Position numbers and translations under genes: made by a program. The notes under the pieces were generated by a model. It saw only the letters and a list, made by a program, of their open reading frames with translations. It was not told where the DNA came from and did not search any database. 64,000 nucleotides of DNA from Gammaproteobacteria bacterium (GTDB lineage: Bacteria; Pseudomonadota; Gammaproteobacteria; SpSt-1174): contig JARRKE010000014.1 of NCBI GenBank assembly GCA_037388465.1, positions 19,848 to 83,847 on the forward strand, read 5' to 3'. Shown one piece after another: positions 1 through 57,594 of the stretch; the first letter of the stretch is position 1; each line of letters begins with the position of its first letter.

Positions 1-35
1 CGCAGACCCTGTCGCATAACGGCACCCTGACGCTG

Positions 36-1457
36 TTGAGCGGCGACACCGGCAATTACCAGGGCACTGCCGTGCAGGACTTTCAATCCACGCAGGGACA
101 ACTGACCGAGGCGGGATACGAACACCGTTTCGGCTCCCGTTGGCGGGCGGCGGCGCGCATCGTTTCGCTGCATGGGCATGAGGATGTCGCGAACCACGAA
201 ACCGCCGTCGGGGCGGTGGAATACAACAATCGCGATAACAGCCAGGATTACCAGCTGCATGTCATGCAGGACAGCCTCGGACACAACGGCAGCTGGCTGG
301 ACACGAGATTCACCGGCCGGCGCTGGACGAACCGCTTCGGGCTGTACCGCATGGACCCCGGACTGCTGTGGACCGACGCCCCCATCATCAACGACACCCA
401 GGGCGTCTACGCACGCGCCGACCTGAGCCGCTCGTTATACAACGTCAACCTGGGCGGTGACTGGTCGCAAACCAACCTCAACGACGATCCCACGCTTGCC
501 GGCATCGATTACACCAACCTGTACGCCAACGGCAATTACCGGCTCAACTATAAGCTGACGATCGGCGGCAGCCTGACCTACCAGAATGCCGCCGCGCGCT
601 CGGGAACAGCGACCCAGGACTCGGATAGCACCTCGCTCTCCGGGCGCCTGAGCCAGCAGAGCTCGCTCGGCACCACGCGCTACCAGCTGACCTGGAACGA
701 AAACCACATGGGGAATTTCAGGGGACAGGGCAACAAACTCAGCATCGATCACGACTGGTATCCCAACAGTGCGCTGCAACTGACCACCTCGCTCAGCGGT
801 GAACGGGCGGACACCTCCGACGGCTCGACCGAGCGCCTGGATACCGGCGTCGTCTGGCGGCAGTCCGTGACGGGGAATTTCAACTGGTCAGGCGGCGTGG
901 GCTATACGCAGGTCACAGGTACCGGCGCGACGAATAATTTCAATGCCACGGTCCAGGGTGATTGGCAGATCAGCGACGAGTGGGCGGTCAGCCTGCGCGG
1001 CGGCTGGAACCAATTGAAATACCAGGACATCGTGTCGATCCCCGGCTACACCCCCACCGACCGGCAAACCGAAAGCAGCGTCTACCTCAGCGTGCGTTAT
1101 ACCCGCACCGAGGGCACTCCGCTGATCGCCTTCGGCCGCCGCTATGGCGCAACTGCCGGTTACGGCCGCGTCTCGGGCCAGGTCTTCCTGGACGAAAACC
1201 GCGACGGCATTCGTGAAGCAAACGAAAAGGTGCTCCCCGGCCTGACCGTCATTCTCGACGGCCAGTACCCGACCCAGACCGACAGTCAGGGACGGTTCAG
1301 CTTCGAGCCGGTACCGACCGGGCCGCACATGGTGCAGATTGCCATTCAGGACGTACCCCTGCCCTGGGGGCTGGAAAAGAACGACCGGTTCAAGGTTTCG
1401 GTGCCGGTCCGCGGCACGGCTGAACTGCCGATTCCGCTGGTGAAGTTGAATAACTGA
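36..1457 (+). CDS. Outer-membrane beta-barrel-like protein ending in an SdrD-B/Cna-B (carboxypeptidase-regulatory-like) domain; the 5' end runs off the window
   Basis: The ORF reaches position 1 with no start codon in the window. Its composition is rich in N/T/S/G/Y/W/Q with alternating hydrophobic residues, typical of beta-barrel OMPs. The C-terminal approximately 90 aa (SGQVFLDENRDGIREANEKVLPGLTVILDG...TQTDSQGRFSFEPVPTGPHMV) matches the SdrD-B / Cna-B-type fold signature. Whether it is an usher for the adjacent pilin genes cannot be decided by eye; it is convergent to them. Confidence 0.45.
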   Translation: MSGDTGNYQGTAVQDFQSTQGQLTEAGYEHRFGSRWRAAARIVSLHGHEDVANHETAVGAVEYNNRDNSQDYQLHVMQDSLGHNGSWLDTRFTGRRWTNRFGLYRMDPGLLWTDAPIINDTQGVYARADLSRSLYNVNLGGDWSQTNLNDDPTLAGIDYTNLYANGNYRLNYKLTIGGSLTYQNAAARSGTATQDSDSTSLSGRLSQQSSLGTTRYQLTWNENHMGNFRGQGNKLSIDHDWYPNSALQLTTSLSGERADTSDGSTERLDTGVVWRQSVTGNFNWSGGVGYTQVTGTGATNNFNATVQGDWQISDEWAVSLRGGWNQLKYQDIVSIPGYTPTDRQTESSVYLSVRYTRTEGTPLIAFGRRYGATAGYGRVSGQVFLDENRDGIREANEKVLPGLTVILDGQYPTQTDSQGRFSFEPVPTGPHMVQIAIQDVPLPWGLEKNDRFKVSVPVRGTAELPIPLVKLNN

Positions 1458-4893: not shown

Positions 4894-6789
4894 ATGACAC
4901 AGCCTGACTATCCGTTGCTCGAGGGCATCGACAGCCCCGCCGACTTGCGCGCCCTGCCGCAAAAGTCGCTACGGGCTGTGTGCGACGAACTGCGCCGATT
5001 CCTGCTGCAGTCGGTATCGAGTTCGGGGGGGCATCTCGCCGCGAATCTCGGCGTGGTGGAGCTGACCGTCGCCCTGCACTATGTCTTCCAGACACCTGAT
5101 GACCGCCTGGTCTGGGATGTGGGACACCAGACTTATCCCCATAAGGTATTGACCGGACGCCGCGACCGCCTGCACACCATTCGCCAGAAGGACGGCCTGT
5201 CCGGCTTCCCGAGCCGTAGCGAAAGCCCGTACGACGCCTTCGGCGTGGGACATTCCAGCACCTCCATCAGCGCGGCGCTGGGCATGGCGCTGGCCGCGGA
5301 ACGCGCCGGCGAAGACCGGCAGAGCGTGGCCATCATCGGCGACGGCGCGATGACGGCTGGCATGGCCTACGAGGCCCTGAATCACGCCGGCGACCTCAAG
5401 GCCAATCTGCTGGTCATCCTCAACGACAACGAAATGTCCATCTCCCCCAACGTCGGGGCGCTTAACAAATACTTCGCGCGCGTGCTGTCCGGGCGCATTT
5501 ACTCGACCATGCGCGAGGGCGGCAAGCAGGTGCTCAAGAACATGCCACCTATGTGGGAACTGGCGCGCCGCGCCGAAGAGCACATGAAGGGCATGATCAT
5601 CCCCGGCACCCTGTTCGAGGAGATGGGATTCCAGTACTTCGGCCCCATCGACGGCCACGACGTCGACGGCCTGGTAAAGATGCTGCACAACCTGCACGGA
5701 CTGCAGGGCCCCCGCCTGCTCCACATCAGCACCCGCAAGGGCAAGGGGTACGCCCCGGCCGAGGCCGACCCGGTCGCCTACCACGGCGTGGGACGCTTCG
5801 ACCCCGATACCGGCCTGACCGCCGGCAAGACCGGCGGCGCCCCCACCTATACCGAGGTCTTCGGTTCCTGGCTCTGCGACATGGCCGAACAAGACGAGCG
5901 CCTGCTCGCCATCACCCCGGCCATGCGCGAAGGCTCGGGGCTGGTCGAATTCTCCGAGCGCTTCCCGGAACGCTATTTCGACGTGGGCATTGCCGAACAG
6001 CACGCGGTGACCCTGGCCGCGGGCATGGCCTGCGAGAATGCCAAACCCGTGGTCGCCATTTATTCCACCTTTTTGCAGCGCGGCTACGACCAGCTGATTC
6101 ACGACGTGGCGCTGCAGAACCTGCCGGTATTGTTCGCCCTCGACCGCGCCGGCCTGGTCGGCCCGGACGGCGCCACCCACGCCGGCAGCTTCGACCTCTC
6201 CTATCTGCGCTGCATCCCGAATCTGGTGGTGATGGCGCCCGCCGACGAAAACGAGTGCCGGCAGATGCTGTATACCGGCTACCGACATGCAGGCCCGGCA
6301 GCCGTACGCTACCCGCGTGGCAAGGGCCCGGGCGCGGCGGTTCAGGCCGAGATGCAGGCCATTCCGCTGGGCAAGGCCCAGCAACTGCGCAAGGGCAAGC
6401 GCATCGCCCTGCTTTCCTTCGGGGGGCTGCTGCAAGAGGCGCGGGCCGCCGCGGAGGCACTCGATGCCACCCTTATCAACATGCGCTTCGTCAAACCGCT
6501 GGACACCGAGATGATCCTGCGCCTGGCCAACAGCCACGAACTCCTGGTGACCGTGGAGGACAACGTCATCGGCGGGGGCGCCGGCAGCGCCGTCAACGAA
6601 TGCCTGGCCGAGCACGACCACCGCGCCTGCCTGCTCAACCTAGGCCTGCCCGACCGCTTTATCGAACACGGCGCACGCGAGGCGCTGCTGGCCGAGTGCG
6701 GCCTGGACGCCGCCGGCATCCGCCATGCCGTGGAGGCCTGGATCAACAATGGGGATTGCGAGGGACGCCGCCCTCAGTTAATATCCTAG
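4894..6789 (+). CDS. dxs: 1-deoxy-D-xylulose-5-phosphate synthase
   Basis: 631 aa with full-length similarity to Dxs, including the TPP-binding GDGAxT(A/G)G motif and typical N-terminal and C-terminal blocks. Confidence 0.95.
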
Positions 6790-56008: not shown

Positions 56009-56593
56009 TCATATGACCGGGATGCCTGCAGCGGCCAGCAACTGTGCCGTTTCGAACAGCGGCAGGCCCATGACGCCGCTGTAGCTGCCCTCCAAACGGT
56101 CGATGAAGGCGGCGGCCAGCCCCTGGATGGCATAGGCACCGGCCTTGTCCATTGGCTCGCCGGTAGCCACATAGGCCTCGAGCTCGGCCTGATTCAGGAT
56201 CCGGAACCCCACCCGGCTGTCACTCAGCCGCAGCGCCACATCATGCCCGGCGGCCAGCGCCACAGCGGTATAAACATCGTGCGTCCGACCGCTCAGCATC
56301 CCCAGCATGCGCACCGCATCGGCCCGGTCGCGCGGCTTGCCCAACACCTCGTCGCCGACCACCACCACGGTATCCGCCCCCAGCGCAGGCAATCCCTCGC
56401 TTACGGCCAGTCCGGCCTGCGCCTTTTCCAATGCCATGCGCTGCACGAAATCCAGTGGCGACTCGCCGCGCCGGCGGGTCTCGTCGACATCCACCGGTTG
56501 GCGGCGAAAATTCAGACCGAGCTGATCCAGCAACTCCCGGCGGCGGGGAGAAGCGGAGGCCAGTAGAAAAGTAGATTGTGGTGATTGTTTCAC
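56009..56593 (-). CDS. maf: Maf-like nucleoside triphosphate pyrophosphatase
   Basis: It carries the LLASASPRRRELL motif; 194 aa. It is adjacent to rng. Confidence 0.85.
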   Translation of the reverse strand: MKQSPQSTFLLASASPRRRELLDQLGLNFRRQPVDVDETRRRGESPLDFVQRMALEKAQAGLAVSEGLPALGADTVVVVGDEVLGKPRDRADAVRMLGMLSGRTHDVYTAVALAAGHDVALRLSDSRVGFRILNQAELEAYVATGEPMDKAGAYAIQGLAAAFIDRLEGSYSGVMGLPLFETAQLLAAAGIPVI

Positions 56594-56599
56594 TTTGGT

Positions 56600-57121
56600 C
56601 GGTACTTTAGAGGTTGGTGGTTTTGTTTTATATGTTTTGAGTTTTCGTTTTCGGTTGGAAAGGCGCGGGGTTTTGTTGTGCGGCCTTGTCTACAGTTTCG
56701 CATTAGAAATGGAAGTATTTGAATTTCGCGCTCTTGAGGCCGGGATTTTTTGTCTGATGCGTTCGCACAGCGCGAGGTACTTTCTCTTGCGTGCCCAAGA
56801 GAAAGTACCCAAAGAGAAGGGCACCCCCACCGTCTTGGCCTTCGGCTTCCCTCACAACCGCTGACTTGCGACGGGCACGGTCCGACGCGACGTCCTCGGC
56901 AACTGCTCCTGCGTTGCTCTACCTCCTGCATCCATGCAGTCGTGTCGCGGCGAACCTCAGCCCGGCGTCCCTGCCGGGCTGACCCTGCAAGCCACCGGTT
57001 GCTCGGCAAGGCGGGACGGGGTTTACGGTGAAGGGTGAGACGTAAGGCGTGAGGAGCAATTCGGCGCTTCGTTTGTCACCGCACCTCTCATCTCCTTACT
57101 CCTCCCCCTTCACACCTTACC
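56600..57121 (+). repeat. Copy B of the two-copy structured repeat element: a G+T-rich leader, a conserved core at 56774-57020, and heptamer-rich inverted 3' flanks ending 3 nt before the rlmH stop
   Basis: The core aligns with 1731-1975. The 3' flank carries GTGAAGG/GTGAGAC/GTAAGGC/GTGAGGA units followed by CTCCTTA/CTCCTCC/CCCTTCA/CACCTTAC units, i.e. inverted CCTTAC-type heptamers. Confidence 0.6.
56774..57020 (+). ncRNA. Candidate structured ncRNA core (copy B)
   Basis: There is a perfect 13-bp hairpin at 56776-56809, with a conserved loop end (tgccc) and a stem that compensates relative to copy A. Conserved downstream stems and palindromes are identical or near-identical to copy A. Confidence 0.35.
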
Positions 57122-57123
57122 GA

Positions 57124-57594
57124 TCAGTCCCGATGATACGGATGCCCCTGCAACACGCTCCACGCCCGATACATCTGTTCGGCGAGAATCACGCGCACCA
57201 GGGGATGGGGAAAGGTCAGCGGCGACAGCGACCAGACGAAGTCCGCCGCATCCCGGCAGGCCGGGCTGAGGCCGTCCGGACCACCGACCAGCAGCGCCAG
57301 TTCGCGGCCGTCCACGGACCAGTCGTTCAGGCGGTCGGCGAGCTGCCGGGTGCTGAGGCTGCGGCCGTGTTCGTCCAGGGTCACGATGCGCGCGCCGGTC
57401 GGCACGGCGGCCAGCAGGCGCTCGCCTTCCCGATCGCGCAGGCGGGCGATATCGGCGTTGCGGACGCGCTTTTCCATCGGCACTTCGTGCAATTCCATGC
57501 GCCAGCCGGCGGCGAGACGGCCGGCGTATTCCGTGTACGCCTCGCCCACCCAGGCGGGCATACGCGTGCCGACCGCGATCAGGTGAACGCGCAT
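57124..57594 (-). CDS. rlmH: 23S rRNA (pseudouridine1915-N3)-methyltransferase
   Basis: 156 aa with a SPOUT-fold RlmH sequence (MRVHLIAVG...LLVGGPDGL). Confidence 0.9.
   Translation of the reverse strand: MRVHLIAVGTRMPAWVGEAYTEYAGRLAAGWRMELHEVPMEKRVRNADIARLRDREGERLLAAVPTGARIVTLDEHGRSLSTRQLADRLNDWSVDGRELALLVGGPDGLSPACRDAADFVWSLSPLTFPHPLVRVILAEQMYRAWSVLQGHPYHRD

Follow-up and report, generated by a model that had tools for sequence, protein, structure and literature searches.

We examined a 64,000-nt stretch of DNA (hereafter the window) from a metagenome-assembled genome (MAG) of an uncultured gammaproteobacterium (GenBank GCA_037388465.1, contig JARRKE010000014.1, positions 19,848 to 83,847), in which two copies of a structured non-coding element, copies A and B, abut the stop codons of genes. 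Copy B makes up the entire spacer between the minus-strand genes rlmH and maf (56594-57123, 530 nt), with rsfS lying further upstream and the RNase G gene (rng) further downstream. Copy A sits between two convergent genes, the plus-strand open reading frame (ORF) 36-1457 and the minus-strand ORF 2085-2894. The latter had been called chaperone-like in a first-pass annotation of the letters alone; it has no Pfam match, and the label was not confirmed. Read on the minus strand, that is, in the sense of rlmH, both copies present the same order of parts: a heptamer hairpin, a core that resembles the RNA family TwoAYGGAY, a small covarying hairpin, and an A/C-rich tail (Table 1). No ORF with a Pfam match was found inside the element.

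A composite repeat in two copies

Copies A and B can be aligned over about 240 nt at roughly 90% identity, and without gaps over 182 nt at 86% plus a further 32 nt at 81%. The heptamer pattern CCTTACNCCTTAC (with up to one mismatch) occurs 11 times in the window, always within the two elements, against an expectation of 0.05, and a 26-mer from the core occurs twice (0.00 expected). Between the copies, the small hairpin has the same loop, and the differences in its stems are compensatory. The A/C-rich stretch, ~120–130 nt in length, is conserved in composition but not in sequence: in the minus sense it consists of 36–54% A, 30–35% C and about 4–15% G, in a window of 30% G and 63% G+C, and it is almost unstructured (-22 kcal/mol versus -45 kcal/mol for its complement).

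Table 1. Positions of the parts of copies A and B and of the genes bordering copy B (window coordinates).
Feature	Position	Strand	Basis or remark
rlmH	57124-57594	minus	Pfam SPOUT_MTase, 1.6e-48
rlmH stop codon, TGA (tca on plus)	57124-57126	minus	RlmH C-terminus ...HPYHRD, same position in relatives
Copy B heptamer hairpin	57026-57120	minus	fold of -42.1 kcal/mol; heptamer matches
Copy B TwoAYGGAY-like core: outer stem around hairpin 1 and the interrupted hairpin 2	56847-57009	minus	Rfam RF01731
Core hairpin 1, CAGCCCGGC-AGGGAC-GCCGGGCUG, GGA loop	56958-56981	minus	
Nested 47-nt module, hairpins P2 and P3, then GAG	56898-56944	minus	
Small conserved hairpin, UGGGCA/TGCCCA-type loop	56777-56810	minus	compensatory stem changes relative to copy A
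Copy B A/C-rich, G-poor tail	56594-56724	minus	weakly structured; reaches the maf start
Predicted maf start, GTG	56591-56593	minus	
maf	56009-56593	minus	Pfam Maf, 1.6e-59
Copy A heptamer hairpin H1	1463-1562	plus	inverted copy of H2, same loop GGCAGTGTCTTTTCGCC
Copy A A/C-rich, G-poor stretch, counterpart of the copy B tail	1565-1685	minus	
Copy A small conserved hairpin	1733-1764	minus	
Copy A TwoAYGGAY-like core	1825-1941	minus	partial match below gathering score; holds the 47-nt module at 1852-1898
Copy A heptamer hairpin H2	1981-2082	minus	includes the (CGCCTTA)8.3 array

The final ...cacaccttac of copy B stops at 57120 and is separated from the rlmH stop codon by the three bases cga (57121-57123). 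In copy A, Tandem Repeats Finder reported a (CGCCTTA)8.3 array at 2026-2083 (96% matches), the last CCTTAC of which ends at 2082, 2 nt before the stop codon (2085-2087) of ORF 2085-2894. Both distances agree with the first-pass annotation, as does its proposal that the direct and inverted heptamer blocks of copy B fold back on each other: a purine-rich, degenerate GTRAGGN arm (~57077-57120) pairs with an NCCTYAC arm (~57027-57066). The same annotation had described a G+T-rich leader that faces the other neighbour in both copies. This leader is the tail as seen on the plus strand, and the description fits copy B, whose single heptamer terminus lies on the rlmH side; it does not fit copy A, which carries heptamer hairpins at both ends, with H1 beginning 5 nt after the stop codon (1455-1457) of ORF 36-1457. 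The termini of copy A form an inverted repeat (I1) with 101-nt arms that are 77% complementary, and the copy as a whole folds into one giant hairpin on either strand (z about -13). Both copies share the junction TRA-TCG-(G)TAAGG at their ends. No direct repeat indicative of a target-site duplication was visible at the ends of copy A or copy B, where heptamer slippage blurs the boundaries.

The core of copy B matched the full model of TwoAYGGAY (RF01731, positions 1-168, minus strand) with 44.4 bits (gathering score 43, E = 6.7e-4), and the core of copy A matched part of it (positions 43-116, minus strand) with 37.5 bits, below the gathering score. TwoAYGGAY was described from gammaproteobacteria as two adjacent GGA-loop hairpins within a long stem P1, which is "often very large, e.g. 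24 base pairs" (Weinberg et al., 2010; PMC2864571). The outer stem of copy B, aligned to model positions 1-42 and 117-168, forms such an enclosing P1, and the corresponding stem of copy A is an inverted repeat (I2) of 44 nt at 77%. Unlike in the family, the loop of hairpin 1 reads ARGGAC instead of AYGGAY (AGGGAC in copy B and AAGGAC in copy A, with a purine at position 2), and hairpin 2 has no simple loop because it is interrupted by a 47–48-nt insertion, which the Rfam alignment places, as 48 nt in copy B, exactly in the hairpin loop. The AUGGAU loop in the window element comes from this nested module; the core minus the module is a CGCGA-GAGGACG-TCGCG hairpin, the loop of which resembles that of hairpin 1. 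Likewise, the family has neither heptamer hairpins nor an A/C-rich tail. We regard membership of the window element in TwoAYGGAY as borderline. The family has had no known function since its description in 2010, and its large P1 stems, together with the present case, suggest that its relatives, at least those in gammaproteobacteria, are repeat elements and not RNAs with a dedicated role.

Seven relatives, all distant (RlmH identity at most 68%), keep the gene order nadD-rsfS-rlmH-maf-rng-yhdP. Their rlmH-maf spacers measure 6, 56, 61, 69, 97, 120, and 229 nt, compared with 530 nt here, and the core, the small hairpin, and the tail occur in none of them. Comparison of orthologous spacers, a check that the first-pass annotation had suggested for related strains, showed among these distant relatives the presence/absence difference typical of a miniature inverted-repeat transposable element (MITE) for the core and the tail. 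In three of the seven relatives (L139, L140, and L144: a Thioalkalivibrio genome and two metagenome lineages), a heptamer hairpin lies 0–8 nt after the rlmH stop codon, and its units differ (GAAGTGN, GAATTGG, GAAGGAT). In the three closest relatives (68% RlmH identity), the spacers measure 6–69 nt and lack heptamers. The RlmH of the window is on record only in the source MAG and in a Logan contig of 1.7 kb, which breaks off at the rlmH stop codon, and a second copy of this spacer was not found.

The nested 47-nt module

When the window was compared with other genomes by BLAST, only ~50 nt of the element were held in common, and these correspond to the module in each copy. In the minus sense the module reads CACGACUGC-AUGGAU-GCAG GAGGUAGA GCAAC-GCAGGAGCA-GUUGCC, with CACGA-CUGC as its 5' part; its consensus over 47–48 nt is CACGACUGCAUGGAUGCAGGAGGUAGAGCAAYGCAGGAGCARUUGCC (type sequence CACGACTGCATGGATGCAGGAG), and its bounds on the plus strand are CTC^GGCAAC...GCAGTCGTG^. 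The core 22-mer CTCCTGCATCCATGCAGTCGTG was present without mismatch in at least 120 contigs from species genomes of the Genome Taxonomy Database, often in several copies per genome. The genera among the matches listed were Endozoicomonas, Methylobacter, Marinobacterium, Sedimenticola, Thiohalomonas, and Pseudomonas, and six Pseudoalteromonas chromids also carried the 22-mer. A phage origin was considered and rejected, given that the 22-mer occurs in only two IMG/VR contigs. Elsewhere, the module lies within ~200–230-nt repeats that have various inverted termini flanked by TA or CTAG. None of 18 module-bearing loci matched TwoAYGGAY at the gathering score. With the module alone, no family in Rfam 15 matched at E values up to 10, nor did our literature searches find a description of it; neither absence is proof of novelty.

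The stem P3 covaries among the module copies (GCAAC/GTTGC in 42, GCAAT/ATTGC in nine, GTAAC/GTTAC in six, and GCATC/GATGC in one), with mismatches in two of 61; the first stem was fixed by the search pattern, hence its conservation cannot be judged from this set. GTAGA or GTAGG stood beside one of the module hairpins in 53 of 74 copies. Pairing between the flanks of the module, equivalent to P1, was moderately enriched (-15 kcal/mol or lower in 34% of cases versus 13% of controls). The module is open in five of six frames, in contrast to the stop-rich heptamer arms. Between co-directional genes it showed no strand preference (15 versus 16, 14 versus 16, and 10 versus 12 under three ORF cut-offs), and it was found more often in convergent than in divergent spacers (16 versus 10, 13 versus 7, and 12 versus 5 under the same cut-offs); the gene calls around these loci are crude ORF calls. 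An all-against-all BLAST of 2,640 ORFs from within 8 kb of the module in 120 loci revealed no linked protein family and returned only unrelated housekeeping clusters.

In the nifN gene of Methylococcales, the module is a demonstrable insertion. Two filled loci (L088, 4520-4700, minus strand; L148, 660-840) differ from an empty one (L147, 545-680) by exactly 48 nt, inserted in frame and without target duplication at GGTAAACG^GAAACG. The corresponding 16-amino-acid insert (TTAWMQEVEQRREQLP and variants) is present in three of 11 aligned NifN proteins, from three diverged Methylococcales lineages, and absent from the other eight. Among 59 distinct copies of 47 or 48 nt, G precedes the module in 39, and the three bases that follow are G in 59, A in 48, and G in 52. 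Because GA(A) belongs to the nifN target, the GAG after the module is best read as a target preference. As the module occupies the same site in the two window copies, it was already present in their common ancestor. The exact sequence, the target consensus, and the pair of filled and empty sites provide a handle for finding the enzyme that moves the module, and could also help to show how NifN tolerates a 16-residue insert.

The module shares two short hairpins, a conserved GTAG, and the lack of a gene linked to each copy with repetitive extragenic palindromic (REP) sequences and bacterial interspersed mosaic elements, which are associated with REP-associated tyrosine transposases (RAYTs), and with the palindromes of IS200/IS605 elements. 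Like them, it has inserted without target duplication next to a constant short motif (plus strand, CTC^), and its stem P3 is maintained by compensatory changes. REPs are normally species-specific; unlike them, the module is near-identical across families. Rickettsia palindromic elements are also short palindromic repeats able to sit in frame in genes, but they are about 100–150 nt long as opposed to 47–48 nt, have a different host range, and show no sequence relation to the module. On the grounds of the two hairpins, the adjacent GTAG, the missing target duplication, and the fixed flank, we infer that the module is most plausibly moved in trans by a single-strand Y1/HUH transposase like the RAYTs or the enzymes of IS200/IS605. 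No protein recurred within 8 kb of 120 module copies; a cognate Y1 (HUH) transposase was neither found nor specifically sought, and whole genomes were not searched for one. We tentatively propose, as a possibility short of a probability, that the module is an undescribed, ultra-small, site-specific mobile element of many gammaproteobacterial families that inserts at G^GAG with the help of such a transposase acting in trans, and that the composite is a scaffold it has colonised repeatedly. Its target sites may include GGA-containing hairpin loops and in-frame genes such as nifN.

Several other copies were noted in or near coding sequence. The first 37 nt of the module lie in frame in the BREX methyltransferase gene pglX of E. 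coli ZF34 (L122, 6001-6037; DDCMDAGGRATQ), and the segment is also found in Salmonella and Moellerella plasmids; a clean insertion was rejected here, as a comparison of alleles shows that a variable segment was replaced with a net gain of 18 nt. At L097 (~5150-5205) and L046 (~720-780), the module splits a putative group II intron reverse-transcriptase ORF between ...KGTP and GGVISPLLAN (flanks read by eye), and since this insertion is 47 nt long, the frame is shifted. Further copies lie in long open frames, usually in the GGA sense, at L032 (~830, in a bioF-like ORF), L027, L055, and L045. In the Pseudoalteromonas chromids (L123, 2860-3275; L145; L146), an iron ABC-transporter operon and the gene for a TonB-dependent receptor are separated by a spacer whose middle part is wholly different in three strains; both flanking terminator hairpins are kept, and the module, with a 7-bp closing stem, is present in only one strain. 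A clean empty site was not recognized in these chromids, the orthologous spacer being hypervariable and without crisp boundaries.

Heptamer hairpins at stop codons

The heptamers of the two copies lie 2, 3, and 5 nt from the stop codons of three genes, and beyond the three gene ends stop codons appear in all three frames within 33 nt (rlmH), 17 nt, and 32 nt. All frames are closed so soon because the purine-rich arms contain TAA or TGA and seven is not a multiple of three. Heptamer hairpins were also found at other gene ends. In the relatives L139 (1847-1938), L140 (1842-1909), and L144 (21-56), they stand directly after the stop codon of proA (aldehyde dehydrogenase) and before nadD, with units that differ again (AGAGGCA, AGGTACA, CTTGCCA), and in Marinobacterium a (GCCTTAT)n array overlaps the stop codon of ureG. 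A hairpin of the GTGAGGA/GTAAGGC type is present at an unrelated locus of another organism (L025, z 8.2). The purine-rich arm came first in all 11 heptamer hairpins that we inspected by hand, and the rule rests on these 11, since few cases were recovered when heptamer arrays and hairpins were detected automatically under strict settings. A hairpin with its purine arm first looks identical from either strand, hence the observation that the heptamer end faces the gene is partly automatic.

Heptameric repeats are over-represented in bacteria, for example GGGAATC in Xanthomonas and GGGGA(C/T)T in Nostoc, and their purine- or G-rich strand is the coding strand, 0–50 bp from a stop codon or overlapping it (PMC4692102). 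The window arrays share with these heptameric simple sequence repeats (SSRs; Mrazek, 2007; Rehm, 2015), and with the short tandemly repeated repetitive sequences of cyanobacteria, the tandem 7-nt units, the intergenic location, the purine strand as coding strand, the position within 0–50 bp after a stop codon, and the variable copy number. The relative L140 even has GGGAATT units, close to GGGAATC of Xanthomonas. Unlike the published repeats, the window arrays consist of GTRAGGN units, form long hairpins by pairing with complementary arrays, and are attached to a structured core. For the published classes, too, no function is established. We conclude that the stop-codon geometry is real but belongs to a known repeat class without an explained function, and is not particular to the window element. 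Heptamer hairpins with the purine arm first may form a general, mechanistically unexplained class at stop codons of these bacteria. The selection of target sites through the CCTTAC end, which the first-pass annotation had offered as one explanation of the geometry, was not demonstrated: no target duplication is visible, copy B is one-ended, and heptamer hairpins with other units stand at stop codons elsewhere.

We also noted that at L058 (3193-3216) the heptamer CCTACCT inside the module has expanded to 3.4 copies (GGAGGTAGGAGGTAGGAGGTAGG on the other strand), which suggests that 7-nt slippage acts generally on these repeats.

Origin and possible roles of copy B

Our preferred reading, which we hold with confidence evenly balanced between its being right and wrong, is that copy B is a one-ended copy of a 530–630-bp non-coding, non-autonomous, nested composite repeat that is tolerated at a gene end. 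The composite would have reached the rlmH-maf spacer as DNA, by entry or by copying, and copy B would now be carried passively inside the nadD-rsfS-rlmH-maf-rng transcription unit. Its layers, from the outside inwards, would be the GTRAGGN-heptamer hairpins, the TwoAYGGAY-like core, and, in the loop of the second core hairpin, the module, itself a tiny insertion element, found in many Gammaproteobacteria, that lands at (C)G^GAG without target duplication. The composite would have moved as a unit, and copy B would have lost its second end. A repeat at or just after a stop codon would leave the upstream protein intact, and heptamer hairpins probably accumulate at such positions generally. Because the outer purine arm has TAA or TGA in all frames within 17–33 nt, the abutment on the stop codon is best explained by tolerance and not by active termination. 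Since maf and rng lack promoters of their own and are operon-linked everywhere, transcription of the operon probably includes the repeat.

The first-pass annotation had raised the possibility of a mobile element, and in this general sense it is supported by the absence of the core and the tail from the seven spacers, the second copy at an unrelated locus, the inverted termini of copy A, and the insertion of the module in nifN. The element resembles MITEs and other small bacterial repeats (of the Correia or ERIC type, or TA-flanked of the IS630 type) in its size, its lack of coding capacity, the long inverted termini of copy A, the presence of several copies, the intergenic location with convergent spacers favoured, and the TA/CTAG-flanked inverted termini of the module repeats elsewhere. 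It differs from them in that its termini are tandem-heptamer hairpins, one copy is one-ended, and neither a target duplication nor an autonomous partner was identified. Each layer resembles something known (TwoAYGGAY, MITE- or REP-like elements, heptameric SSRs); the combination, and the 47-nt module, were not found described. Three layers of small repeats (heptamer hairpins, TwoAYGGAY scaffold, and module), two of them without a known mechanism, are nested in the spacer, which is most likely parasitic repeat DNA within a conserved ribosome-maturation operon. Without transcript data, annotation of the spacer as a terminator, promoter region, or small RNA (sRNA) gene is not warranted.

Several observations weigh against a mobile composite. 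Its ends are not crisp, the two copies do not allow a target-site duplication to be defined, and copy B has no second terminus. No transposase for the composite was identified in the 64 kb of the MAG at hand, and a metagenome scan with TGCCGGGCTGACCCTGCAA for further composites of the window type returned 14 contigs, all of them chance matches in coding sequence. The source is an uncultured MAG whose nearest RlmH relatives are 68% identical, so that comparisons reach no closer than this and not to the level of strains. Relative to the gene upstream, the two window copies point the same way, and several of their stems are preserved by compensatory changes between the copies; these two observations fit selection on RNA as well. 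Moreover, the heptamer hairpin of copy B matches that of Thioalkalivibrio (L139; z 6.0, 0 of 300 shuffles) about as well as it matches its paralogues in copy A (z 5.1), and it may be ancestral to the spacer rather than the end of a mobile unit. Taken further, a heptamer hairpin would have stood at the rlmH stop codon ancestrally and evolved in concert by slippage, the core and the tail would have been inserted later, and copy A would have been copied from a segment that included the hairpin. The hairpins 0–8 nt after rlmH in L139, L140, and L144 agree with this history. On the other hand, the three closest relatives have no heptamers in their short spacers, the hairpin of the same GTGAGGA/GTAAGGC type at the unrelated L025 locus argues for a dispersed family, and the inner arm is collinear with copy A at ~70% without gaps and contiguous with the 90% core. 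We judge such a history decidedly improbable.

The two copies might instead be maintained for a role as RNA. As a cis element, the 3' untranslated or intercistronic RNA of the minus strand would bind CsrA/RsmA or 30S ribosomal subunits and thereby titrate the regulator, or control maf-rng translation or mRNA stability. Consistent with this, the TwoAYGGAY matches of both copies lie on the minus strand, that is, in the sense of the upstream gene, and the RNA would display the GGA loops CAGGGACG, CAUGGAUG, and GCAGGAGCA together with purine heptamers that resemble Shine-Dalgarno (SD) sequences. These loops would fit both the CsrA/RsmE consensus CANGGANG and the repeat of CsrB, CAGGA(U/A/C)G. In copy B, GGA occurs ten times on the minus strand versus five times on the plus strand, and A.GGA four times versus once; the minus strand also folds better (core, -96 versus -82 kcal/mol; hairpin, -42 versus -35 kcal/mol). 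The loops are conserved, the stems covary, and no SD-like sequence was found at the predicted GTG start of maf. A CsrB-like layout is seen at L025 (4500-4745) just upstream of an ABC-transporter gene, where six hairpins with covarying stems follow one another in tandem, each of the form CGA-stem-AUGGAU-stem-GGUA in the minus sense. However, the module showed no orientation preference relative to flanking genes in 120 other loci and also lies in frame inside genes, and copy A folds equally well on both strands. As to the functional strand, the comparison of G:U with A:C mismatches (15 versus 10 in 26 hairpins) and the folding energies were both indecisive. Overall, we consider an RNA-level cis element unlikely. 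Were it true that the GGA loops bind CsrA, the spread of the repeat would be a way to rewire post-transcriptional control.

A related proposal, that the spacer holds an independent sRNA gene resembling the Rsm/Csr sponges or sRNA-Xcc1 and equipped with its own promoter and a terminator, is highly improbable. The element does have multiple GGA hairpins (three loop GGA motifs, with an AGGAGG in the junction), as the CsrB, RsmY, and RsmZ sponges do, besides the borderline match to TwoAYGGAY, a family of the same Rfam clan as sRNA-Xcc1, an integron-borne sRNA. Unlike those sponges, it is multi-copy and strand-neutral elsewhere, and shows neither a promoter and terminator of its own nor a fixed orientation: no sigma-70-like promoter was found on the minus strand, no terminator is conserved, and the element begins 2–3 nt after a stop codon. 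A GacA box (TGTAAG-N6-CTTACA) was rejected on inspection by eye, as GTAAG/CTTAC half-sites are present but the canonical 6-nt spacing is absent.

Transcriptional signals were sought as well. Within the element, no sigma-70 promoter was found beyond chance. The first-pass annotation had placed copy B next to a maf promoter region; instead, the repeat runs up to the predicted GTG, and no sigma-70-like site was present on the minus strand upstream of maf. It had also suggested a terminator for convergent transcription. An intrinsic terminator (stem plus U-tract) was rejected, because the one and two candidates in the copies are no commoner than in shuffled sequences (1.4 and 0.9 expected) and none is common to both; the promoterless genes maf and rng downstream likewise argue for read-through. 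What is left of the suggestion is a Rho-dependent form, in which the untranslated, C-rich, G-poor, unstructured tail that follows the stable hairpins would act as a Rho-utilization site and so as a terminator, attenuator, or insulator that blocks convergent read-through at copy A and attenuates maf-rng at copy B. The high C (30–35%) and low G of the tail in both copies, its weak structure relative to the complement, and the position of copy A between convergent genes agree with such a role, and copy A has one terminator-like stem followed by a U-rich run (minus strand, 1789-1771). That site is not conserved in copy B, though, and terminator-like sites are as frequent in shuffles; evidence from composition is weak and unspecific, since an A/C-rich leader could equally be a site for S1 or Hfq. 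In addition, strong termination would silence maf and rng, which are tightly linked to rlmH in all relatives. We consider Rho-dependent termination rather improbable.

Three minor observations concern the gene ends themselves. The stop codon of ORF 36-1457 falls in the heptamer TAACTGA (1451-1457), present here as a single copy; TAACTGA forms abundant direct repeats in Beggiatoaceae and cyanobacteria (PMC4679880). The inverted similarity between the ends of copy A reaches into the last codons of both convergent genes (1444-1453 and 2085-2093; TTGAATAA versus TTATTTCAA), which could be due to chance, or the element could supply both C-termini. Lastly, in one of the closest relatives (L152, 583-590), rlmH and maf are only 6 nt apart (TGATCGATCATG), and the first three bases of this spacer, TCG, are the same as those between the rlmH stop codon and the first heptamer in the window.

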